From the NCBI GenBank assembly GCA_045105035.1, contig JBGCCZ010000134.1, forward strand, positions 153-64,152: a DNA stretch of 64,000 bases. Direction: 5' to 3'. Positions 44,198-56,569 of this stretch are shown one piece after another. Both the position numbers and the translations under genes were made by a program. The first letter of the stretch is position 1, and every line of letters begins with the position of its first letter. Source of the stretch: Pirellulaceae bacterium. GTDB taxonomy: Bacteria; Planctomycetota; Planctomycetia; Pirellulales; Pirellulaceae. A model generated the notes under the pieces. It had not been told where the DNA came from. It saw nothing but the letters and a program-made list of their open reading frames with translations, and searched no databases.

Positions 44198-44642
44198 GGC
44201 TGTTTGCAGTGAAGGCTTGGGGTGCGGATGACGGACCAAATAGTGTGACAAATGATTGTTCGAGAGAGAAGAACCCTGCCAAGTGTCTGCGTTTTGTGGG
44301 ATATCCAGGGAGTTTCGGCATATTCGCAGCCAGCCCGTTACGAGGCTCCTGGGATTTCCGTTCGGCAGTCCGCCTGGCTCATTGGATTCTCGTTGGGAGC
44401 CTGGACCTTTGCTCCGGCGCAAGGGTAATCGGAAAAAGGGCAATCGGAAAAACTTGCCTGTTAGGCAAGGAACGGCGGGTTGAGCGGCAATATCGAGTGA
44501 TTTGGGAGCGTCTCGTTCATCCGTTTTTGATTTGAGTCGTGCTGGAAGGCTACAATGCGCAGACAGAATCGTGCGGCTTGGGCGTATCGCAGCTTCAAGG
44601 ATTCCCGTACTTTCGCCGCTGAGAATGCTCAGGAGTTGGACT

Positions 44643-46088
44643 GTGAACGAAACCGATGCAGGAAAGTTGTCGCCCGACGATGCGGCAAATGAAACCGAAG
44701 CGGCTCAGTCCGAGGCCAAGAGCGCAGACCAAAATTTGGAAGCGGTTCCGAGGCATGAAGCGGCAGATTCAGTTGCAAAACCAGTATCAGGCCGTGATGT
44801 ACATCCACTGCATTTAGCCACGTCGACGTTTCTAAGCCTGCTGATGGTACTTGGCTTGCTGTTGTTGGCTCGACTGTTGGTCCCCTCTTTAGTTGAGAGT
44901 ATTCGATACAGTTGGCATCGCGGTCAGCTCCGGGCTGAGTATGAATTGAGTGTGGAGCACTTGAAGAGCGTGTCGCTGGATTCGCTTGCAGACGTCTCCA
45001 AGCTGGTTAGCCAGCGTATGGGGCCGAGCGTAGTGCACATCAATGTGCGCCCACGAGTGTCAACGACTTTTGCAAATTCGTTAAGTTTGGGTGGAGCGTT
45101 CGAGGGGCAGGGCAGCGGCTTTGTGATTGGGGCAGAGGGCTACATCCTGACTAACGATCATGTTCTTGAAGATGGTGGCGATATCGAAGTCACGATGAGT
45201 GATGGGCGTAAGCTGCCTGCCAAGATCCAGGGGCGAGATCGTCATACTGATCTTGCTGTGATCAAAGTGGACGCCGGAGACTTGCTCCCAATCGAATGGG
45301 GCGAGAGTCAGGGGATCGCTGTAGGGACCCCGGTTTGGGCAGTGGGGAGTCCATTTGGTTTGCAGCAAACGGTGACCTTCGGAATTATCAGCGGCAAACA
45401 TCGCGTCGACTTTGGGCGAACACGTGGTGCAAGGAATGTTCGTGGTGGGACTCCGTACGGTGATTTGATGCAAAGTGACGTTGCTTTGAATCCGGGTAAT
45501 AGTGGCGGGCCGCTGGTGAACTCACTTGGGCAAGTTGTCGGCGTGAATGCTGCGATTCTTGGCGAGACGTTCCAGGGAGTCAGTTTTTCAATACCGAGTC
45601 GAGTCGCGCGAGTGGTTGCCGATCAATTGATTCAGGAAGGCGCGGTGCCTCGTGGTTGGCTGGGTGTCGAGCTGCGGGAATTGTCGCGGCTAGAAAAATA
45701 CTCTGAGGACGGCCGGGTTCGTCCCGGCGTTAAGATTGGGCGATTTCCGGCAAATATGGACTCGCCAGCCAAGGACTCCGGATTGATGGTCGGTGACATT
45801 ATTACTGCTTTTGAGGGTCAGCCGATTTTCGACCGCACTGAATTGATTCGTATGATTGGTGAATCAGCAGCCGGCTCGACGGTCATGCTAACGATCGAAA
45901 GGCCGATTACCGACGAACTGCTCGGCATGGATGAGTCTGAAGAATCGAAAGACTCGAGCAATCCGGCGTCTGAGTCGGAGAAAGAGCGAGGCTCTGGACC
46001 GGATTCTGCGGGTGAGGAACCCATCGCAGATGCTTTCGAAGTCTTGGAAGTGAGAGTCAAGCTTCGACAGCGAGACCCGCGTCTGTAA
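44643..46088 (+). CDS. HtrA/DegS-like serine protease (TM, trypsin domain, one PDZ)
   Basis: GSGFVI, TNDHV, TDLAVIK, NPGNSGGPL, 'RGWLGV' PDZ. Confidence 0.92.
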   Translation: MNETDAGKLSPDDAANETEAAQSEAKSADQNLEAVPRHEAADSVAKPVSGRDVHPLHLATSTFLSLLMVLGLLLLARLLVPSLVESIRYSWHRGQLRAEYELSVEHLKSVSLDSLADVSKLVSQRMGPSVVHINVRPRVSTTFANSLSLGGAFEGQGSGFVIGAEGYILTNDHVLEDGGDIEVTMSDGRKLPAKIQGRDRHTDLAVIKVDAGDLLPIEWGESQGIAVGTPVWAVGSPFGLQQTVTFGIISGKHRVDFGRTRGARNVRGGTPYGDLMQSDVALNPGNSGGPLVNSLGQVVGVNAAILGETFQGVSFSIPSRVARVVADQLIQEGAVPRGWLGVELRELSRLEKYSEDGRVRPGVKIGRFPANMDSPAKDSGLMVGDIITAFEGQPIFDRTELIRMIGESAAGSTVMLTIERPITDELLGMDESEESKDSSNPASESEKERGSGPDSAGEEPIADAFEVLEVRVKLRQRDPRL

Positions 46089-46678: not shown

Positions 46679-47869
46679 ATGTCCTTTTCCCGATTTCAAC
46701 GGGTCCTTTGGGTGTTCGTCTTGTGCGTATTTTCGACACAGGTTCGAGCCGAAGATCCAAAGTTGAGTTCTCTTGGCTTCGCTAGTGAAAAACCTGAAAG
46801 TGGCCCAGCGATCGAGGTCGAGGGCGGGTTTTTGGTTCCTTACACGTTGGTTGTGCCTGGAACGGAGGTCGAGATCAAGATGGTGCCGATCCCTGGCGGG
46901 ACGTTCAATCTTGGCAGCTCAGAGGACTCTGAGGGACACGTCGAAGACGAAGCGCCGACGGTAGAGATTGAAGTTGGGCCGATGTGGGTTGCCAAATACG
47001 AGACGACTTGGGAACAGTATCAGCTTTACATGTCGATGTACCGGATTTTTAAAGACCTGCAAGGGCAGGGTTTGCGGATGGTGAACGCGGACAATGAAGT
47101 TGACGCGGTCACCGCACCAACGGAGCTCTACGATCCGTCGTTTACTTTCAAGTACGGGCAGGAGTCCAACCTTCCGGCCGTGACCATGACACAGTACGCA
47201 GCGAAGCAATACACGAAGTGGTTGAGCAAACTTGTGGCCCACCAATACCGTCTGCCAACGGAAGCGGAGTGGGAGTATGCTTGCCGCGCGGGTTCTGAGA
47301 CGGAGTACTCCTTCGGCGATGACCCGGCAGTGCTGGGAGACTACGCATGGTTTTTCGAGAACTCGGACGGTATTCCTCACGGAGTCGGCGAGAAGAAGCC
47401 GAATCCCTTTGGCCTACACGATATGCATGGCAATGCAATGGAATTGGTGATTGGGGCGTACACCGAAGATGGTTACATGGCCCTAGAAGAGAATGGTGCT
47501 AAGACCGTTGTGGACTCGATTCAGTGGTCCGAGACTTTTGACAATCGATGCGTCCGCGGCGGTAGCTTTGAAGACGACGCGGAATTGCTGCGGAGTGCAG
47601 CGCGTTTGGGCTCGCAGGGTGAAGATTGGAAGACGGAAGACCCCAACGTGCCGCTAAGCCCATGGTGGTACACCGATGATCCAACGCGCGGGATCGGCTT
47701 CCGAATCGTACGTTCGTACAAACCCCTCGATGATGAGTTGATTGTCAAATTTTGGGATATCGACAACGAAGACATCGAGCTGGATGTCAATATGCGTTTG
47801 GATGAAGGCCGTGGTGTACTGACGCCGGTTGATCCTGCGTTGGCTGAGGCGATTAAAGACGCTCAGTAG
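46679..47869 (+). CDS. Secreted FGE-sulfatase (SUMF1/EgtB/PvdO) domain protein
   Basis: IPGGTFNLGS, RLPTEAEWEYACRAG, NPFGLHDMHGN, RGGSF, IGFRIVR. Confidence 0.9.
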   Translation: MSFSRFQRVLWVFVLCVFSTQVRAEDPKLSSLGFASEKPESGPAIEVEGGFLVPYTLVVPGTEVEIKMVPIPGGTFNLGSSEDSEGHVEDEAPTVEIEVGPMWVAKYETTWEQYQLYMSMYRIFKDLQGQGLRMVNADNEVDAVTAPTELYDPSFTFKYGQESNLPAVTMTQYAAKQYTKWLSKLVAHQYRLPTEAEWEYACRAGSETEYSFGDDPAVLGDYAWFFENSDGIPHGVGEKKPNPFGLHDMHGNAMELVIGAYTEDGYMALEENGAKTVVDSIQWSETFDNRCVRGGSFEDDAELLRSAARLGSQGEDWKTEDPNVPLSPWWYTDDPTRGIGFRIVRSYKPLDDELIVKFWDIDNEDIELDVNMRLDEGRGVLTPVDPALAEAIKDAQ

Positions 47870-47981: not shown

Positions 47982-48992
47982 ATGGAGCACGACGAAGTAC
48001 CGTCGTCCAAAGTCTCGCCCTCTGACTTGGGGCTGGATCAGCTTGAGTGGGGGCGACTAGAGGACTGGGTTCAGCTGGTCCGCTTTCCAACCACGTTCAC
48101 GCTGCTCTCAGGAACCATGTCGGCTGCAATCGTTGCTGGACAGGGGTGGCTGCCGCTCTCCGCGTTTTTGCCAACCGTGTTGGCTTCTTTGGCAGTTTAC
48201 TGGGCAGGGATGATCCTAAATGACGTGGTCGACATCGAAGAAGATCGGCTTCATCGACCAAAGCGTCCTCTGGCTGCTGGGAAAATCTCCCCAGTAATCG
48301 CCGGGCACGTCGGGACGGCTCTGCTGATGCTCGCCCCAATCGTCATCTTGGGCGTGACTGCGATGCACTCTAGCCAGCCGCTTTGGCAAGGAGTGGCCTT
48401 TCTTGCGGCGGTGCTGTTGTCGTTGTGTGTGCGAGTCTACGACTCGTCGCTGAAGTCAACGCTGCTGGGGCCAATTCTGATGGCAGGCTGTCGCGGGCTT
48501 AACATTTTGATGGTCGGCTGCACGATGCTCGCAGTGAGCGATATCGAAGTTTTTCCGTTGGAGTTGGCTTACTTCGCCGGCGGCATAGCCTTGTACATCT
48601 GTGGGATCACAGTCTTTGCCAAGAGCGAAGAGCTGGATGCAAAAGAAAGTGGCAACTTAGTACTGGGCTTGCTTCTGCAGGCTGCCGGGCTGATCGTGAT
48701 TGCACTGCTTCCACGCTGGGCGACGGCCGCGGAAATGTGGTATCTGGATCCGCTGCGTTACTATCCGTTGCTTATTGGATTGATCGGAATGACCGTAGCG
48801 AATCGCGCGTTTCAGGCGATTCGGAGTCCGATTTCACGGAACGTCATTTTAGCGGTCAAGCACGCGTTGCTTACGCTGATTCTGATCGATGCCGCAGTTG
48901 CTCTAATGTGGTGCGGCCCGTGGTTTGGGGGAGTCGTTGTAGCTCTGCTCGTACCAGCGCTCTTTATGGCGATATCCGTGCGTTCGACCTAG
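47982..48992 (+). CDS. UbiA-family prenyltransferase (EboC-like)
   Basis: 'GMILNDVVDIEEDRLHRPKRPL', 'YD...K', 'MAGCRGLN'; multiple TM segments. Confidence 0.85.
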   Translation: MEHDEVPSSKVSPSDLGLDQLEWGRLEDWVQLVRFPTTFTLLSGTMSAAIVAGQGWLPLSAFLPTVLASLAVYWAGMILNDVVDIEEDRLHRPKRPLAAGKISPVIAGHVGTALLMLAPIVILGVTAMHSSQPLWQGVAFLAAVLLSLCVRVYDSSLKSTLLGPILMAGCRGLNILMVGCTMLAVSDIEVFPLELAYFAGGIALYICGITVFAKSEELDAKESGNLVLGLLLQAAGLIVIALLPRWATAAEMWYLDPLRYYPLLIGLIGMTVANRAFQAIRSPISRNVILAVKHALLTLILIDAAVALMWCGPWFGGVVVALLVPALFMAISVRST

Positions 48993-49492: not shown

Positions 49493-49852
49493 CTATTTCT
49501 TCCCTAGGAGTTGACCGATATTCTTCACGGCTAGATTTAGTGAAACGGCCGACATCTGGTAGTTCATATGGCCAGAAATTTCAGGCTGAATTTCCGTAAA
49601 CAGCTCGGTAGCGCGTCGGAGCTTCGAGAACTTCTTATTCGCTAGCTTGAGGTACGCCTTTGCGTCGTTGGCATCAAGCGATGGTCCCAACGCGAGCATA
49701 AAGTCGTAAAGGTCGCGGTGTACTGAAGCGAGTTCTTCGTCTTCCTGGGCTTCGTCGCTGTGCTTCAGGAAGGTTCGAACCATCCAAACGTGGGCAACCT
49801 GCTGATCGACAAGTTGCATCAGTTCGGACTCTTCGGGACTGTTATCGCTCAT
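49493..49852 (-). CDS. Conserved planctomycete hypothetical helical protein
   Basis: 'HVWMVRTFLKHSDEA...LYD...P.ISGHMNYQMS'. Confidence 0.75.
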   Translation of the reverse strand: MSDNSPEESELMQLVDQQVAHVWMVRTFLKHSDEAQEDEELASVHRDLYDFMLALGPSLDANDAKAYLKLANKKFSKLRRATELFTEIQPEISGHMNYQMSAVSLNLAVKNIGQLLGKK

Positions 49853-50088: not shown

Positions 50089-51960
50089 ATGCCAGATCTT
50101 ATTGCTCAAGGCCCTCGGCCCCAGGATCGTTGGCGTCGTACTTTGGAGGACTCGGGAGTTGAGGTCGTCCTGGGGCGTACTACGGAACCTTGGTCGGTAA
50201 AGTGGGATGATCGGATCTCGCGTCGGCATGCGACTTTGGTCTGGACAGGTTCCAAGCTGCAAATCGCGAAGCTCGAGCAAGCTCGTAACGCGATATTTTT
50301 CCGCGGCCAACAGTGTGCCAAGTTTGATGCGTCGATCGGCGATCACTTTGTCATTGGCCAAACCACGTTTACGGTGCTTGATGAGCAGGTGACGGCCGCG
50401 CCGGGCGTGGAACCCGAGCCCGTCTTCGCCGAACAGACCTTCTCGGCTCACTTGCTAAGAGAGAACAAGTATCGAGACGCGGACCAGCGCATCGAAGCGC
50501 TGGGTCGGTTGCCAGAGATAATCTCGGGGGCCAATAGTGATGAGGAGCTCTGTACGCGGATTACAGATTTAGTGTTGCGTGGGGTTCAAGAGGCGGCTTT
50601 CGTGGCCGTGCTGCGATTTAGGGACGAGCCGGAGCAGGGGACGGCCTCCTCATCTGACGGTGACACTGCAGCCGAACAGAGTTTCTCCGAGACGAAGTTA
50701 GATGTCCAATTCAATCCGGCCTTTGAAGTTCTACATTGGAATAGTCGTCAACTGGGCGGCAAGCCTCTCACGCCAAGTGTTGGCTTGGTGCGCACGGCCA
50801 CACAGACTAAGGAAAGTGTGCTGAATGTTTGGAATCGTAATTCGGTAAACCCGACGTTTACCCAGAGTGAGAATGTGGACTGGGCCTTCTGTACACCAGT
50901 CGTTTCCGACGCGTGTCCAGGCTGGGCTATCTACGTGGCGGGCGCGTTCACGACGGCTTCCATGATCGAATTGCAAACCTCTGGCATGAAAGAAGCCGAG
51001 ATGTTGCAGGACGATTTGAAATTTACGGAGCTTACGGCAACCACGCTCGGGGCCCTGCGGCAAGTTAGAGCTCTGCAGCGAAGGCAAGACAGTCTGCGTA
51101 ACTTTTTCGCGCCTGTCGTGATGGATGCTCTCGCGGGCCGCGATCCAGAGCAGGTTCTCACACCACGCGAGACAAACGTGTCGGTGCTGTTCTGCGACTT
51201 GCGAGGATTTTCCAAGCGTAGTGAAGATGCCGCTGATCGTTTGCTCGAGTTGCTTAAGCGGGTGAGCGATGCGCTGGGAGTGATGACACATCACATTCTG
51301 GCGAACAGCGGCGTTGTTGGGGACTTTCATGGTGATGCGGCGATGGGTTTTTGGGGATGGCCTATCGCGACAGGAAATCCGATACAGCAGGTTTGCCGAG
51401 CGGCGTTGGCAATACGAAATGAATTCGCTGCGGCGGCCAAACAACCAGATCACCCTTTGGCTGATTTCCGCGCTGGATTGGGAATCGCGTCTGGTTCGGC
51501 CGTGGCAGGGCGGATCGGAACAACAGATCAGGTCAAAGTGACCGTGTTCGGACCAGTCGTGAATTTGGCTTCACGGTTGGAAGGAATGACGAAGCAACTG
51601 CAGACGTCGATTTTGGTTGATGAGCCAACGGCGGATTGGATTCGGGCGAATGTTCCAACTTCCGAACTGCGCATTCGGCGAGTCGCCCGCGTATTGCCGT
51701 ACGGGATGAAAAAGCCGCTCGTAGTGAGTGAATTACGGCCACCTGCGAGCGAAGATACGATCATGTCGGACGCGGACGTTGAGGCCTATGAGGAAGCACT
51801 GGGCGAATTTCTCGAGGGCAATTGGAGCAATGCATTCCGCCTGTTACATGAAGTCCCGGCGGAAGATCAAGTCAAGGATTTCTTAACCGTGTTCATTGCG
51901 CAACACCGCCGTGAACCGCCTCCGGACTGGGCTGGGGTCATTGAGTTGCCAGCCAAGTAA
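50089..51960 (+). CDS. FHA-domain class III nucleotidyl cyclase
   Basis: FHA domain (LGR, ISRRHA), central GAF-like region, cyclase motifs LFCDLRGFS, GDFHGDA, VNLASRLE. Confidence 0.9.
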   Translation: MPDLIAQGPRPQDRWRRTLEDSGVEVVLGRTTEPWSVKWDDRISRRHATLVWTGSKLQIAKLEQARNAIFFRGQQCAKFDASIGDHFVIGQTTFTVLDEQVTAAPGVEPEPVFAEQTFSAHLLRENKYRDADQRIEALGRLPEIISGANSDEELCTRITDLVLRGVQEAAFVAVLRFRDEPEQGTASSSDGDTAAEQSFSETKLDVQFNPAFEVLHWNSRQLGGKPLTPSVGLVRTATQTKESVLNVWNRNSVNPTFTQSENVDWAFCTPVVSDACPGWAIYVAGAFTTASMIELQTSGMKEAEMLQDDLKFTELTATTLGALRQVRALQRRQDSLRNFFAPVVMDALAGRDPEQVLTPRETNVSVLFCDLRGFSKRSEDAADRLLELLKRVSDALGVMTHHILANSGVVGDFHGDAAMGFWGWPIATGNPIQQVCRAALAIRNEFAAAAKQPDHPLADFRAGLGIASGSAVAGRIGTTDQVKVTVFGPVVNLASRLEGMTKQLQTSILVDEPTADWIRANVPTSELRIRRVARVLPYGMKKPLVVSELRPPASEDTIMSDADVEAYEEALGEFLEGNWSNAFRLLHEVPAEDQVKDFLTVFIAQHRREPPPDWAGVIELPAK

Positions 51961-51978
51961 TAGAGAGTAATAAGAACG

Positions 51979-52422
51979 ATGACTGATGACCCATTCATGC
52001 GAGCCGCCATTGATGAGGCGAGGATAGGATTGGACGCAGGCGGGATCCCAATCGGTTCGGTGCTCGTCTTGGATGGTGAGATTATCGGGAGAGGCCACAA
52101 CCGTCGTGTTCAGGACGGTAGTCCCATTCTGCATGCAGAAATGGCTTGCCTTGAAAATGCGGGGCGGAGGTCGGCGGCCGAGTATCGTCGCTCAACGATC
52201 TACTCAACGTTGTCGCCCTGTGACATGTGCAGCGGAGCCATCCTGCTCTATGAAATTCCGCAGGTTATCTTCGGTGAGAATACGACTTTCGGAGGGCCCG
52301 AAGACTATGTTCGGTCACGCGGTGTTCAAGTCACGAATATGAGCTCCGCGGAGTGCATTGCCTTGATGCGGCAGTTCATACAATCGAAGCCGCAGTTGTG
52401 GAATGAGGATATTGGCGTTTGA
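51979..52422 (+). CDS. Cytosine deaminase, fungal Fcy1-type (CDA fold)
   Basis: GGIPIGSVL, HAE, LSPCDMC, C-terminal WNEDIG. Confidence 0.88.
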   Translation: MTDDPFMRAAIDEARIGLDAGGIPIGSVLVLDGEIIGRGHNRRVQDGSPILHAEMACLENAGRRSAAEYRRSTIYSTLSPCDMCSGAILLYEIPQVIFGENTTFGGPEDYVRSRGVQVTNMSSAECIALMRQFIQSKPQLWNEDIGV

Positions 52423-52519: not shown

Positions 52520-53956
52520 TTAAGCCAACAAGTCATGTTGCACTTCTCCATGGACGTCCGTTAGCCGATAGTCACGGCCTTGGAAGCGATAGGTGAGTTT
52601 CGTGTGATCGAGCCCGAGTAGGTGCAAGACGGTGGCTTGCAGGTCGTGGACATGTACTGGCTTTTCGGTCACACCGAATCCGAGCTCATCGGTGCTGCCG
52701 TAGTCCAGGCCGCCTTTGACCCCGCCACCGGCCATCCACATCGTAAAGCAGTCCGGATAGTGGTCGCGACCGAGGATCTTGCTTTTCGCAGTTCGTCCTT
52801 CGCGGAACGGCGTGCGACCGAACTCGCCGCCCCAAACAATCAGCGTGTCTTCGAGCAGTCCGCGTTGGCGAAGGTCCTTGATCAACGCAGCTACGGGCTG
52901 GTCCATCGTAGCGCACTTCTTGGTGAGTCCGTCACCAATGTCTTCACTTGGATTGGTTCCGTGGAAGTCCCAGCCCCAATCGAAAAGTTGCACGAAGCGA
53001 ACACCGGACTCCACTAATCTCCGCGCCAGCAAACAGTTGTTGGCCAAGGAGCTGCGGCCTGGCTCTGCTCCGTAGTCCTCGAGTGTTTGCTGCGATTCGC
53101 GAGAGATGTCCATGACTTCTGGAACGCTGGCCTGCATGCGGAAGGCAAGTTCGTACTGAGCGATTCGCGTTTGTGTTTCGGGGTGACCCATCTGCTCAGC
53201 CTGCAGTTGGTTGAGTTGGCTGAGAGCGTCGAGTGTCGAACGCCGCAGTTTGCGACTCATACCCTTCGGGTTCGATGCAAACAGAACTGGGTCGCCTTTA
53301 GAGCGGCACTGTACACCCTGGTAAACGCTCGGAAGGAAACCACTTCCGAACGAACTTTTACCTCCATTGGGTTGTACTCCGCTGGAAATCAGCACGACAA
53401 ACGCAGGTAGATCTTCGTTCTCAGAACCTAGTCCGTAGGTTACCCAGGAACCCATGGAGGGACGACCGGTGCGGGGAGAGCCTGTGTAGATCAGTAATTC
53501 GGCTGGGGCGTGGTTGAATTGATCGGTGTGCATGGAGTGGACCATGCACAACTCGTTGGCGACGGTCTTCAGATTCGGCAACGCGGCGGACATCCAGGTG
53601 CCCTGTTCTCCGACTTGCTCAAACTGCTGTGGAGTGCCCAGTAGGGTTGGCGTTCCGGAGGTGAACGCGAAGTCCTTGCCTTCAAGAAACGAGCCTGGGC
53701 AGTCCTCACCGTGCCTCTCTTTGAGAGTCGGTTTGTAGTCGAAGAGGTCGAGGTTTGGCGGGGAACCAGTCATGTGTAGGTAGATGACTCGTTTGGCCTT
53801 CGGAGCGAAATGAGTCTGCGCAGCACCGACAGCCTGCGTGGCTGCTTGCGAACTGTTCAATAAGTTGCCAGATGCTAGGGCGCCAAGCCCGAGTGCGCCG
53901 CCTTGGAGGAAGTATCGGCGAGTTCGGAGCTGTAGGTTTTCGATGATGGGATGCAT
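52520..53956 (-). CDS. DUF1501 domain protein (Tat substrate)
   Basis: TRRYFL Tat motif, 'AKRVIYLHM.G.P', 'ARRLVESGVRFVQ', 'GEFGRTP...GRDH'. Confidence 0.93.
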   Translation of the reverse strand: MHPIIENLQLRTRRYFLQGGALGLGALASGNLLNSSQAATQAVGAAQTHFAPKAKRVIYLHMTGSPPNLDLFDYKPTLKERHGEDCPGSFLEGKDFAFTSGTPTLLGTPQQFEQVGEQGTWMSAALPNLKTVANELCMVHSMHTDQFNHAPAELLIYTGSPRTGRPSMGSWVTYGLGSENEDLPAFVVLISSGVQPNGGKSSFGSGFLPSVYQGVQCRSKGDPVLFASNPKGMSRKLRRSTLDALSQLNQLQAEQMGHPETQTRIAQYELAFRMQASVPEVMDISRESQQTLEDYGAEPGRSSLANNCLLARRLVESGVRFVQLFDWGWDFHGTNPSEDIGDGLTKKCATMDQPVAALIKDLRQRGLLEDTLIVWGGEFGRTPFREGRTAKSKILGRDHYPDCFTMWMAGGGVKGGLDYGSTDELGFGVTEKPVHVHDLQATVLHLLGLDHTKLTYRFQGRDYRLTDVHGEVQHDLLA

Positions 53957-54037: not shown

Positions 54038-56569
54038 CTACCGTTTCATTAGGACTTCATCGAGGTTTAGGATCACGTTGCCGACGGACGCTAACGCGGC
54101 CAGGTGATGATCGCTTACGTGTTGAGGTTTGCCCGGAGGATCGCCAGCCAGCGAAGTGGCTGTGTTGTCGTCGCCGTCAAGCTGCTCATAGGCTTCGTCA
54201 TAGAGCTGCAAGAGTACGATTGCTTCTTTAGCGGAAGGTGCCCGATTGGTTGCTAATCGGAACATCGCCGAGATCTGGCGTGATGTGTCTTTCGGGTCGT
54301 TCACGGATGCTGCCTTGGCTGCTAGGGCTTGGGCGGCTTCGAAGAAACTTGGGTCGTTCAAGGTGACCAGGGCTTGTAGCGGTGTATTGGTTTGTTCTCT
54401 TCGCAGCATGCAGACTTCGCGGCTAGGGGCATCGAACATCATTAGCGATGGATACGGGCTCGACCGTCGCCATTTGGTGTAGAGAGCACGGCGGTAACGG
54501 TCTTCGCCTTGAGATGTTTCCCAATCCGTCTTACTGCCAAACGCGGCTTTGAGTCCGAGGTCGGGTTGAGGAGGTTGTACAGGCGGGCCGAACATTTTTC
54601 CGCTCAGTAGCCCGGCCGCAGCAAGTGCTTGGTCTCGCACCATTTCCGCGCTCAGCCGAACACGTGGACCTCGGGCTAACCAACGATTGGCTGAATCACG
54701 TTGCCAGTCATCTTGGGATACTTCAGACGTTTGCCGATACGTCTGACTCGTCACCATCAGCCGCAGTAAGCGTTTGGTATTCCAGCCCGAATCCATGAAC
54801 TCCACCGCCAACCAATCGAGGAGATCCGGATGAGTTGGGCGTTCGCCTTGCGCACCAAACTCCTCACTGGTTGTTACAAGCCCGCTTCCAAACAGCGTTT
54901 CCCACAAGCGGTTTACCCAAACTCTGGCTGTCAACGGATTGCGACGATCTACAAGCCAGCGAGCTAACTCCAATCGACTAACTGGCTTCGCAGAATCGCT
55001 GGTCTCTATCGGATGGAAAACTTCAGGCACCCCGGCGACCACCTGGATGCCCTGGGCTCGGTAGTTGCCGCGGATCTGTACGAAAGTCTTTCGGTGTTTC
55101 GGTTTCGCTAACTCGCTCAAAACAGGAACTGTTGTGGCGGGCTTCAGATCTTTCAGCGTTTTTCGGTACGCTGCAAGTCGGTCAACTTCGGACTTCGTTC
55201 GTGCTGCGTAGTTGGTAAAAAACCGTTTTCGGTCTGGCAATGAGAGCGAATCGGTCCACGGATCAACCAGGCTGAATCTCGCTTTGGTCGGTTGCGAAAG
55301 TTGTCGCGATAGTACTGCGATCTGGGACTGGATGATTTCTTTGCGATCGATCTGTTCGTCGGTAAAAAGTTGCAGGATGGGAGCTTCGTTCCTACGGTCA
55401 GCATCGGCCGTTTGATTGAAAATTGCGAACAGCTTGAAGTACTCTTCGTGCGTGTAGGGGTCGTACTTGTGGGTATGGCACTGAGCGCAGGCCATGGTAA
55501 CGCCCATCCAGACCGCCATCGTCGTGTTGACTCGGTCGACCACGGCCACGTTGCGAAACTCTTCGTCGTTCGTCCCGCCTTCGTTATTCGTCAATGTGTT
55601 GCGGTGGAATGCAGTGGCCACCAGTTGGTCTTCAGTTGGGGATGGCAGTAAGTCCCCCGCAAGTTGTTCAATCGTGAATTGATCGAGCGGCATGCCCGAA
55701 TTTAGTGCGCGTACCACCCAATCGCGATAGGCCCAAATGGTTCGCGGTGGATCATCGGCGTAGCCAGCCGAGTCGGCGTAGCGAGCAAGATCCAGCCACT
55801 GCCGCGCCCAATGCTCGCCGTACTTGGGCGATGCGAGCAGCTCGTCTACCAACTGTTCGAAGGCTAAGTTATTCTCGCTTTTGAGGGTTGAACTAACGAG
55901 GCCAGTTTCACGCGGTAGGCCAATCAGATCCAGACTAACGCGTCGTTCTAGTTCAGCAGTTGTGGCTGGCGGCGAAGGGCTCCAGCCTTGTTCTCGCATT
56001 TTTGCGTAAGTAAATCGGTCAATCGCATTGCTTCTCCAAGATTCGGGGATCTTGTTATCGATTGGTGGTAGGTCGGGTTTTGTGGGCGGAACAAACGACC
56101 AGTGTTCTGTCCACTCTGCACCCGAGTTGATCCACTGACGGACAAGCTCCGCTTCTTCATCGGAGATTGCCTTGCCGAATTCAGGAGGCGGCATCTTTTC
56201 CCCGTCATCATGGCTGTCGATGCGGCGCATGAGTTCACTGCTCTGAGCGTCTCCAGGCATGACTGGTGGCAGTCCGGAATCTGCTTCGCTGAGAAATGCC
56301 GTTCTTTCGTCCAGCCGGAAACCTCCTGAACGCTGCTCTTCGTCTGGGCCGTGACAGGCAAAGCAGCGATTCGAAAGCAAACTGCGGACGCTCCGTGTTT
56401 TCTCCAAGCCGAACTTGCTCTCTGAGCTAGTCGTTTTGGAGGTTCTCGCTGGAGCCTCTTCTACACTAAGCCCTCGCTTTGCATTCGACGTGCACCAAAG
56501 CAAAATTGCTAACAAGGCCACGAACAGTCTCAGTACTGGTTGATTTGCCGAAGACATTGCAAATTGCAC
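54038..56569 (-). CDS. Planctomycete cytochrome c / DUF1549 / DUF1553 (PSCyt-PSD1) protein
   Basis: CFACH and CAQCH heme motifs, 'HWSF', 'WLDLARYADS', 'NPLTARV.VNR.W', 'TPLQAL'. Confidence 0.93.
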   Translation of the reverse strand: MQFAMSSANQPVLRLFVALLAILLWCTSNAKRGLSVEEAPARTSKTTSSESKFGLEKTRSVRSLLSNRCFACHGPDEEQRSGGFRLDERTAFLSEADSGLPPVMPGDAQSSELMRRIDSHDDGEKMPPPEFGKAISDEEAELVRQWINSGAEWTEHWSFVPPTKPDLPPIDNKIPESWRSNAIDRFTYAKMREQGWSPSPPATTAELERRVSLDLIGLPRETGLVSSTLKSENNLAFEQLVDELLASPKYGEHWARQWLDLARYADSAGYADDPPRTIWAYRDWVVRALNSGMPLDQFTIEQLAGDLLPSPTEDQLVATAFHRNTLTNNEGGTNDEEFRNVAVVDRVNTTMAVWMGVTMACAQCHTHKYDPYTHEEYFKLFAIFNQTADADRRNEAPILQLFTDEQIDRKEIIQSQIAVLSRQLSQPTKARFSLVDPWTDSLSLPDRKRFFTNYAARTKSEVDRLAAYRKTLKDLKPATTVPVLSELAKPKHRKTFVQIRGNYRAQGIQVVAGVPEVFHPIETSDSAKPVSRLELARWLVDRRNPLTARVWVNRLWETLFGSGLVTTSEEFGAQGERPTHPDLLDWLAVEFMDSGWNTKRLLRLMVTSQTYRQTSEVSQDDWQRDSANRWLARGPRVRLSAEMVRDQALAAAGLLSGKMFGPPVQPPQPDLGLKAAFGSKTDWETSQGEDRYRRALYTKWRRSSPYPSLMMFDAPSREVCMLRREQTNTPLQALVTLNDPSFFEAAQALAAKAASVNDPKDTSRQISAMFRLATNRAPSAKEAIVLLQLYDEAYEQLDGDDNTATSLAGDPPGKPQHVSDHHLAALASVGNVILNLDEVLMKR

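Follow-up and report, generated by a model that had tools for sequence, protein, structure and literature searches.

The synthesis of cyclic GMP (cGMP) by bacteria has, to our knowledge, been established for very few enzymes, namely Cya2, the cyclases of Rhodospirillum and Xanthomonas and, recently, those of the Pucsar systems. The subject of the present study is a gene at positions 50089..51960 of the forward strand of a 64,000-nucleotide stretch of contig JBGCCZ010000134.1 from a Pirellulaceae bacterium (this whole stretch is referred to as the window). It encodes a class III nucleotidyl cyclase of 623 residues, in which an FHA and a GAF domain precede the catalytic domain and a helical extension follows it, as identified from the open reading frame (ORF), a PF00211 match, orthologues, and an AlphaFold2 (AF2) model. 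The base pocket of this enzyme is, as far as it can be predicted from the sequence, not of the adenylate cyclase type, and its signature is that of the guanylate cyclase (Cya2) type. We place roughly even confidence in the overall description of the protein as a soluble, competent FHA-GAF class III cyclase that is controlled by a kinase and phosphothreonine and whose product is most likely cGMP, or in any case not cyclic AMP (cAMP) alone.

A characterized enzyme that is similar in its base-recognition residues is Cya2 of Synechocystis PCC 6803 (2w01). Like the window cyclase, it has a class III domain of the homodimer type (Z 19.9), an acidic residue at the first base-recognition position (site 1), a Lys two residues before the second (position −2 relative to site 2), the Asn/Arg transition-state pair, and an Arg two residues after the first metal-binding Asp. 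Site 2 is Gly in Cya2 and is also small in the window family (Gly in 57 and Thr in 75 representatives). However, Cya2 has Glu at site 1 where the family has Asp, and Tyr572 where the family has Ser or Ala; also, Cya2 is membrane-bound and has a CHASE2 sensor, whereas the window cyclase is soluble and carries FHA and GAF domains. The best overall matches are with class IIIb adenylate cyclases, represented by Spirulina CyaC, Pseudomonas aeruginosa CyaB, and OaPAC (E 1e-12, Z 21), which share with the window cyclase the Thr at site 2 and the metal-binding and transition-state residues, but have Lys at site 1 and Asp or Glu at −2, the reverse of the Asp and Lys of the window family.

Other systems resemble the window cyclase in domain arrangement or fold. 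DgcB of Bdellovibrio bacteriovorus (6hbz, 6hc0) also has an N-terminal FHA domain (Z 12.9) on a cyclase of the palm-like superfold, and this domain reportedly binds a phosphorylated tail and so activates the enzyme. DgcB differs in its GGDEF output domain, which produces cyclic di-GMP, and in having no GAF domain; we know of no report of a conserved kinase gene adjacent to it. The Pycsar and Pucsar cyclases (PycC, PucC) have a class III-like fold (Z 15-17), and one of these, PfPucC, makes cGMP and has been modeled with Glu and Lys at its two base-recognition positions (bioRxiv 10.64898/2026.08.12.744502). They are, however, small stand-alone cyclases encoded in two-gene defense operons with CNB-TIR/TM effectors, whereas the window cyclase is a multi-domain protein encoded by a core gene. 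In CyaB1 and CyaB2 of Anabaena, a GAF domain lies upstream of the class III domain and is connected to it by a helical linker, as in the window cyclase, but both are adenylate cyclases of the Lys/Asp type that bind cAMP through tandem GAF domains and lack an FHA domain. The GAF domain of the window cyclase differs also in being undetectable by sequence profiles.

Literature searches found no prior work on cyclic-nucleotide signaling in Planctomycetes and, for FHA, cyclase, and Planctomycetes in combination, no characterization of the present family. If the product were cGMP or another nucleotide distinct from cAMP, the code that governs base specificity in class III cyclases would gain a new entry (Asp in place of Glu or Lys), and signaling by eukaryote-like Ser/Thr kinases would be tied through an FHA domain directly to the synthesis of a second messenger. 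With any product other than cAMP, many current "adenylate cyclase" annotations would be wrong, and the family would constitute the largest natural group of bacterial class III cyclases that are not adenylate cyclases.

Active Site and Base-recognition Residues

The window protein was aligned with CyaC and OaPAC, and its alignment with Cya2 was obtained through segments of a family member, P0205; all positions given below are on the forward strand. The metal-binding aspartates of CyaC and Cya2 align with Asp370 (51196-51198), located in an FCDLRG motif (51190-51207), and Asp416 (51334-51336), located in a GDFHGD motif (51319-51336), and the transition-state pair aligns with Asn492 (51562-51564) and Arg496 (51574-51576) of an NLASR motif (51562-51576). 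Both pairs are thus contained in a single chain, as in cyclases of the homodimer type. An initial annotation of the window, made from the nucleotide sequence, had described these four residues as intact, and this is borne out both by the alignment with solved cyclases and by their presence in all of 50 orthologues. The motif positions given in that annotation also agree with the sequence.

Site 1 is occupied by Asp412 (51322-51324), four residues before the second metal-binding Asp. It lies opposite the adenine-binding Lys of CyaC, OaPAC, and CyaB, in agreement with the initial annotation, which placed an Asp of the GDFHGD motif at the location of the adenine-selecting Lys; through P0205, it is also opposite Glu488 of Cya2 and opposite the Lys that replaces this Glu in the E488K variant, an adenylate cyclase (6fht). 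The canonical site 2 is Thr485 (51541-51543), seven residues before the Asn, which corresponds to the Thr of CyaC and to Gly562 of Cya2. Two residues before it, Lys483 (51535-51537), the first residue of a KVTVFG motif (51535-51552), corresponds to Lys560 of Cya2, which is probably, to judge by its position, the "supporting Lys" described for that enzyme; the same position is Asp or Glu in CyaC, in OaPAC, and in the second cyclase of the window's own genome. The earlier statement that a Lys replaces the acidic residue of "(D/E)YTVIG" is therefore literally correct, but Lys483 is not the canonical second specificity residue, which is Thr485. Similarly, the "swapped base-specificity residues" proposed at that stage reflect a real reversal of charge, but the alignments show that it involves site 1 and the residue beside site 2, and that the two classical specificity residues have not changed places. 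The parallel with Cya2 that had been drawn holds well, the Cya2 pattern E488...K560-x-G562 being matched by D...K-x-T/G/S in the family, and for family members with K-x-G the best match in the Protein Data Bank (PDB) over this segment is Cya2 itself (E 8e-7). Two further positions can be compared with Cya2: Ser495, three residues after the Asn, aligns with Tyr572, and Arg372, two residues after the first metal-binding Asp, aligns with Arg450.

Conservation within the Family and in Other Cyclases of the Order

Conservation was assessed in two samples, one of 50 full-length orthologues from across the order, which have 46-81% identity with the window protein, and a broader one of 153 rows, in which the window protein and two other listed relatives are joined to 150 representatives of clusters at 50% identity; 151 of these rows are aligned in the Asp412 column, the other two being gapped. 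Named relatives of the protein come from Aureliella and Pirellulaceae. In the orthologues, Asp412 is present in 50 of 50 and Lys483 and Thr485 are each present in 49 of 50, so that the Asp/Lys pair, whose conservation the initial annotation had named as a check on its proposal, is indeed retained. In the broader sample, site 1 is Asp in 149 of the 151 aligned rows, Glu in one, and Lys in none; Lys occupies −2 in 139; site 2 holds Thr (75), Gly (57), or Ser (13); position 495 is Ser or Ala; and the metal-binding and transition-state residues are each kept in at least 144 of the 153 rows. The conservation of the D...K-x-T/G/S signature is far beyond chance.

For comparison, a control set of 28 other PF00211 domains was taken from 40 Pirellulales genomes. 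Thirteen of these have Lys at site 1, and they comprise five with Ser or Leu at −2 and Asp at site 2, seven with Asp or Glu at −2 and Thr at site 2, and one with Ser at −2 and Ala at site 2; Lys at −2 is found in none of the 13. Another 13 have Asp at site 1, accompanied by Gly at site 2 and by Lys (12 domains) or Thr (one domain) at −2, and in the two remaining domains site 1 is Gln or Asn. It should be noted that these domains belong to related proteins and the counts therefore do not represent independent events. The Asp-type domains form a sister family, with 31% identity to the window protein over the cyclase domain and C-terminal extension, and with a GAF-like region. The sister-family cyclases are Pirellulales proteins of 575-643 residues with the same Asp...Lys-x-Gly pocket ("VDYIGD" ... 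"KFKYG"), encoded on the reverse strand at L096:1207-3135, L086:1180-2904, and L103:1204-3039 and at ten further loci; no member was found in the window's own genome.

The family is an order-wide, single-copy core component. It is present in 102 of 151 sampled Pirellulales genomes; within the window's genus, 22 of the 24 genomes sampled contain it. In a sample of 251 genomes from the phylum it is confined to Pirellulales and to 9 of 11 genomes from one family of a second order in the same class. About 430 clusters at 50% identity match it with E < 1e-30.

Domain Architecture

A first AlphaFold model, based on an alignment of 17 close orthologues, was discarded (predicted local distance difference test score, pLDDT, 63). 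The working AF2 model is from an alignment of 106 sequences, including representatives of the 50%-identity clusters, and has a pLDDT of 90.9; domain limits were set by exhaustive structural comparison of this model (Z scores from VIA-align). In the model, the order of domains is FHA, GAF, helical linker, cyclase, and C-terminal helical extension.

The FHA domain, residues 1-100 (50089..50388), is identified from its fold, which matches known FHA structures (3hx1, 3gqs, 3poa, and 3oun) with Z scores of 14.2-14.4 and root mean square deviations of 1.7-2.0 Å over 90-96 residues, and from PF00498 matches in orthologues. In the full-length window protein the Pfam match to this domain is below threshold, PF00211 being the sole match above it, but PF00498 is matched individually by 28 of 29 orthologues, and the top-ranked PDB matches to a profile of the 29 orthologous N termini are FHA-domain proteins. 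The residues expected to bind phosphothreonine are Gly29-Arg30 (50173-50178), Ser44 (50218-50220), His47 (50227-50229), and Asn67 (50287-50289). They match the motif of 3gqs and are invariant in 50 of 50 orthologues, in accord with the earlier observation that the GR, SxxH, and N elements are retained.

The GAF-fold domain, residues 129-332 (50473..51084), was revealed by the fold search (Z 13.4-13.7 over about 150 residues with 3trc, 4g3v, 3p01, and 8jrc), whereas sequence-profile searches of Pfam and of PDB sequences gave no match with this region; a look-up in the ESM Atlas, a language-model resource treated as a lead only, gave GAF clusters as the nearest. Within this domain is a disordered insert, approximately residues 181-210 (50629-50718; pLDDT < 50), that is acidic and rich in Ser and Thr and differs in length among orthologues; it is a candidate site of phosphorylation for recognition by the FHA domain. 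The GAF domain is connected to the cyclase domain by a helical linker, residues 302-356 (50992..51156), for which DSSP analysis of the model gives a long helix (302-337) and two short ones (342-348 and 353-356). The model suggests that this is a probable signaling helix or transducer element.

The catalytic domain, residues 357-557 (51157..51759), is supported by both fold and profile. PF00211 matches residues 360-519 with a score of 38.7 bits against a cut-off of 21.9 (E 1e-9), and the fold matches CyaB, CyaC, and Cya2 with Z scores of 21.4, 21.1, and 19.9, respectively. The C-terminal extension, residues 558-623 (51760..51957), contains helices at 561-576, 579-586, and 594-605, modeled with pLDDT >90, and is conserved in the family alignment as well as being common to the sister family.

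The FHA Domain and an Upstream Kinase

Clustering of the flanking ORFs across orthologous loci identified a recurrent gene upstream of the cyclase and on the same strand. In two complete genomes this gene encodes a Ser/Thr kinase of 704-811 residues with a Pkinase domain and ends 33 and 147 nucleotides before the start of the cyclase gene; the 811-residue protein also has a weak, sub-threshold match to dCache_1. Outside the window's genus, the C-terminal part of the kinase is encoded next to the cyclase gene, upstream of it and in the same orientation, at 19 of the 31 orthologous loci. The window's own genome encodes the probable orthologue of the kinase on another contig (contig 207, 15377-16513, reverse strand), with an E value of 4e-122 as compared with 4e-32 for the next of the approximately 60 kinases in this genome, and the kinase-cyclase pair has probably become separated in this genus. 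A conserved pair of kinase and FHA genes is the usual signature of a partnership based on phosphothreonine docking, and we infer such a partnership between this kinase and the FHA domain of the cyclase. The description of the enzyme as FHA-regulated in the initial annotation is therefore not only supported but strengthened, by the FHA fold (Z 14), the invariance of the phosphothreonine-binding residues, and the upstream kinase in the 19 loci.

A possible mechanism is that the likely upstream regulator, a membrane Ser/Thr kinase that may have a Cache-type sensor (the match being weak and sub-threshold), phosphorylates a threonine in itself or in the cyclase, and that the FHA domain would bind the resulting phosphothreonine. 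This binding, together with the GAF domain, might then change how the linker helices are arranged, and with this the activity of the homodimeric cyclase. It should be recognized that, whereas the folds of the domains, the residues for catalysis and phosphothreonine binding with their equivalences and conservation, and the linkage to the kinase gene are shown by the analysis, the kinase-FHA interaction and the direction of regulation, like the product, are inferred. More tentatively, the family may be seen as part of a core, vertically inherited pathway of Planctomycetia in which a possibly Cache-like kinase would switch on, through FHA-phosphothreonine recognition, cyclases with an invariant Asp/Lys pair that make a nucleotide other than cAMP, either cGMP or another; our confidence in this broader proposal falls a little short of even.

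Nature of the Product

Published structure-function studies provide a framework for considering the base specificity of the enzyme. Site 1 of guanylate cyclases is occupied by Glu, and site 2 by Cys, Ser, Thr, His, Ala, or Gly (PMC4215837). The Glu of Cya2 is "assisted by a supporting Lys," with the Gly at site 2 acting sterically together with the Tyr (PMC6005667), and the single substitution E488K is enough to make this enzyme an adenylate cyclase (PMC5995499). For RhGC, most of the specificity for GTP is carried by the contact that the Glu makes (PMC7384201). The Lys at site 1 that characterizes adenylate cyclases is absent from the window protein, being replaced by Asp in 149 of 151 rows with the window protein included, whereas the Asp or Thr found at site 2 of class IIIa and IIIb adenylate cyclases is present as Thr485 (Thr, Gly, or Ser in the family). 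Among the features of Cya2, the Lys at −2 and the small residue at site 2 are present (Lys483 and Thr, Gly, or Ser at 485); site 1 is acidic but is Asp and not Glu, and the Tyr located three residues after the Asn (Tyr572) is missing, position 495 being Ser or Ala. A product other than cAMP, likely cGMP, is plausible because D...K-x-T/G/S matches E488...K560-x-G562 of Cya2. The proposal in the initial annotation of a guanylate or other non-adenylate cyclase thus stands in so far as the pocket is Cya2-like, but is weakened by the Asp in place of Glu and by the absence of the Tyr. The window's own genome, which is 88% complete, has a single other PF00211 gene, encoding a membrane protein with the canonical K...E-Y-T pattern; this second Lys/Thr cyclase would supply cAMP. 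Three proteins with domains that bind cyclic nucleoside monophosphates are also encoded there and are possible receptors. On balance, cGMP is the likeliest main product, to which, on sequence grounds, we would assign somewhat less than even weight; the weight not given to cGMP, to cAMP, or to a pyrimidine cyclic nucleotide falls to some other product or to none.

Several considerations weigh against a kinase-controlled cyclase with a product other than cAMP. The product cannot be read from sequence alone. The Asp is one methylene group shorter than the Glu of every characterized guanylate cyclase, and Glu is found in only 1 of the 151 rows, an indication that the geometry is unlike that of Cya2; the position of Tyr572, which raises the guanylate cyclase activity of Cya2, is Ser or Ala in the window family. 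The best overall matches in both sequence and fold are class IIIb adenylate cyclases, of which Thr at site 2 is also typical, and the reversed Asp/Lys pair could in principle still form hydrogen bonds with adenine. Rv1900c and Rv0386 are said to be cyclases with non-canonical pairs that are nonetheless adenylate cyclases. With regard to regulation, the kinase gene is beside the cyclase gene in none of 18 loci within the window's genus, and because of this the coupling there is a matter of orthology alone.

The principal alternative is that the enzyme is still an adenylate cyclase, a kinase-controlled source of cAMP in which the Asp/Lys pair reads adenine in some other way or in which other features of the pocket are decisive. 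This would fit with the class IIIb enzymes being the top sequence and structure matches, with the Thr at site 2 of the window protein, and with the public annotation of its relatives as "adenylate cyclase"; also, class III cyclases bind GTP and ATP in much the same way, specificity arising during catalysis (PMC7384201). However, the Lys is replaced in all 151 aligned rows, the equivalent position is the one at which a Glu-to-Lys change is sufficient to switch Cya2, the genome already contains a canonical Lys/Thr cyclase, and the Asp/Lys(−2) and Lys/acid(−2) signatures are cleanly separated within the order. We regard cAMP as a less likely main product than cGMP, though one that must be taken into account. 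A pyrimidine cyclic nucleotide (cCMP or cUMP), which would make the enzyme functionally akin to PycC of Pycsar, is considerably less probable. The PADLOC model for PycC matches with 57 bits, above the Pfam PF00211 score, the folds of the cUMP and cCMP synthases 7r65 and 8jsf match with Z scores of up to 17, and the residue two positions before the second metal-binding Asp is Gln or His, Gln at that position being needed for the use of CTP by EaPycC (PMC11224242). Nevertheless, the PycC hidden Markov model match is limited to the generic catalytic core, adenylate and guanylate cyclases match better in fold (Z 20-21), and the bulky residues that narrow the pocket and determine specificity in Pycsar are not reproduced. 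Since no CNB-TIR or CNB-TM effector is encoded beside the gene, the neighbors of which are the deaminase, a DUF1501 gene, a 119-residue ORF, and UbiA, and since it is a single-copy, order-wide core gene and not part of a mobile defense island, the PADLOC match is considered to reflect generic similarity of the core. Asp94 of BcPycC was considered as a precedent for Asp at site 1 and was not used, as the metal-Asp spacing of related PycC enzymes (PMC11224242) suggests that it is two, not four, residues before the second metal-binding Asp. 

The possibility that the cyclase domain is a non-catalytic module with a regulatory or scaffold role appears very improbable. It is suggested by the retention of the canonical Arg of β4 (Arg461) in only about half of the family and by the presence, in most members, of Tyr or Ala where pattern matching would place the "KG" Lys normally found after β7. 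However, both metal-binding aspartates, the Asn, and the Arg are essentially invariant, Arg530 and Arg531 are conserved near the usual location of the Lys, and Arg372 is present, the counterpart of which in Cya2, Arg450, takes over the binding of phosphate (PMC6005667).

The Adjacent Cytosine Deaminase

The TAA stop codon of the cyclase gene is followed, after 18 nucleotides, by the ATG of an ORF of 147 residues (51979..52422, forward strand) that encodes a cytosine deaminase of the yeast (FCY1) type; the 18-nucleotide spacing given in the initial annotation is exact. The protein matches yeast cytosine deaminase (1ysb) from end to end (residues 4-146, E 6e-41), has the HAE and PCxxC zinc-binding motifs and the C-terminal tail of 1ysb, and scores 79.7 bits with PF00383. 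The gap of 18 nucleotides between genes on the same strand suggests co-transcription in the window genome, and the genes are arranged alike in G165, the closest relative (80% identity); on this basis the two genes might be viewed as a unit that ties cyclic-nucleotide signaling to pyrimidine salvage. The wider comparison leaves this view with hardly any probability. Of 48 other full-length orthologue loci, 47 lack the deaminase next to the cyclase. It is within 1.5 kb of the cyclase in none of 29 order-level loci and, among 22 loci from the same genus, is beside it only in G165. At four loci of the genus (L036, L044, L048, and L050) the cyclase gene has the DUF1501 gene immediately next to it, and the deaminase itself is found in only 10 of 40 genomes of the genus, being at unrelated loci in 8 of these. 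The link with pyrimidine deamination, which the initial annotation had advanced as speculative, is refuted because the adjacency is restricted to the window genome and G165. The DUF1501 gene is the ancestral downstream neighbor of the cyclase in the genus, and the deaminase gene is an insertion between these two genes in a shallow lineage and has no functional tie to the cyclase.

Other Neighboring Genes

The DUF1501 gene (52520-53956, reverse strand) lies downstream of the deaminase, beside a PSCyt1/PSCyt2/PSD1 gene (54038-56569, reverse strand); genes of these two types located side by side are a characteristic planctomycete pair. Upstream of the cyclase, on the forward strand, are genes for an HtrA-like protease with a PDZ domain (44502-46088), a protein of the FGE-sulfatase family (46679-47869), and a UbiA prenyltransferase (47982-48992). 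No recurrence of the UbiA gene beside cyclase orthologues was found in flanks of 1.5 kb, the HtrA-like and FGE-sulfatase genes being outside such flanks. The immediate upstream neighbor is the 119-residue ORF (49493..49852, reverse strand), which is divergent from the cyclase and is conserved at this location within the genus: it adjoins the cyclase gene in 17 of the 22 same-genus loci fetched and also in one locus outside the genus (L015). Its Pfam match is sub-threshold only (Cob_adeno_trans, 17 bits), and its Atlas clusters consist of planctomycete hypothetical proteins.

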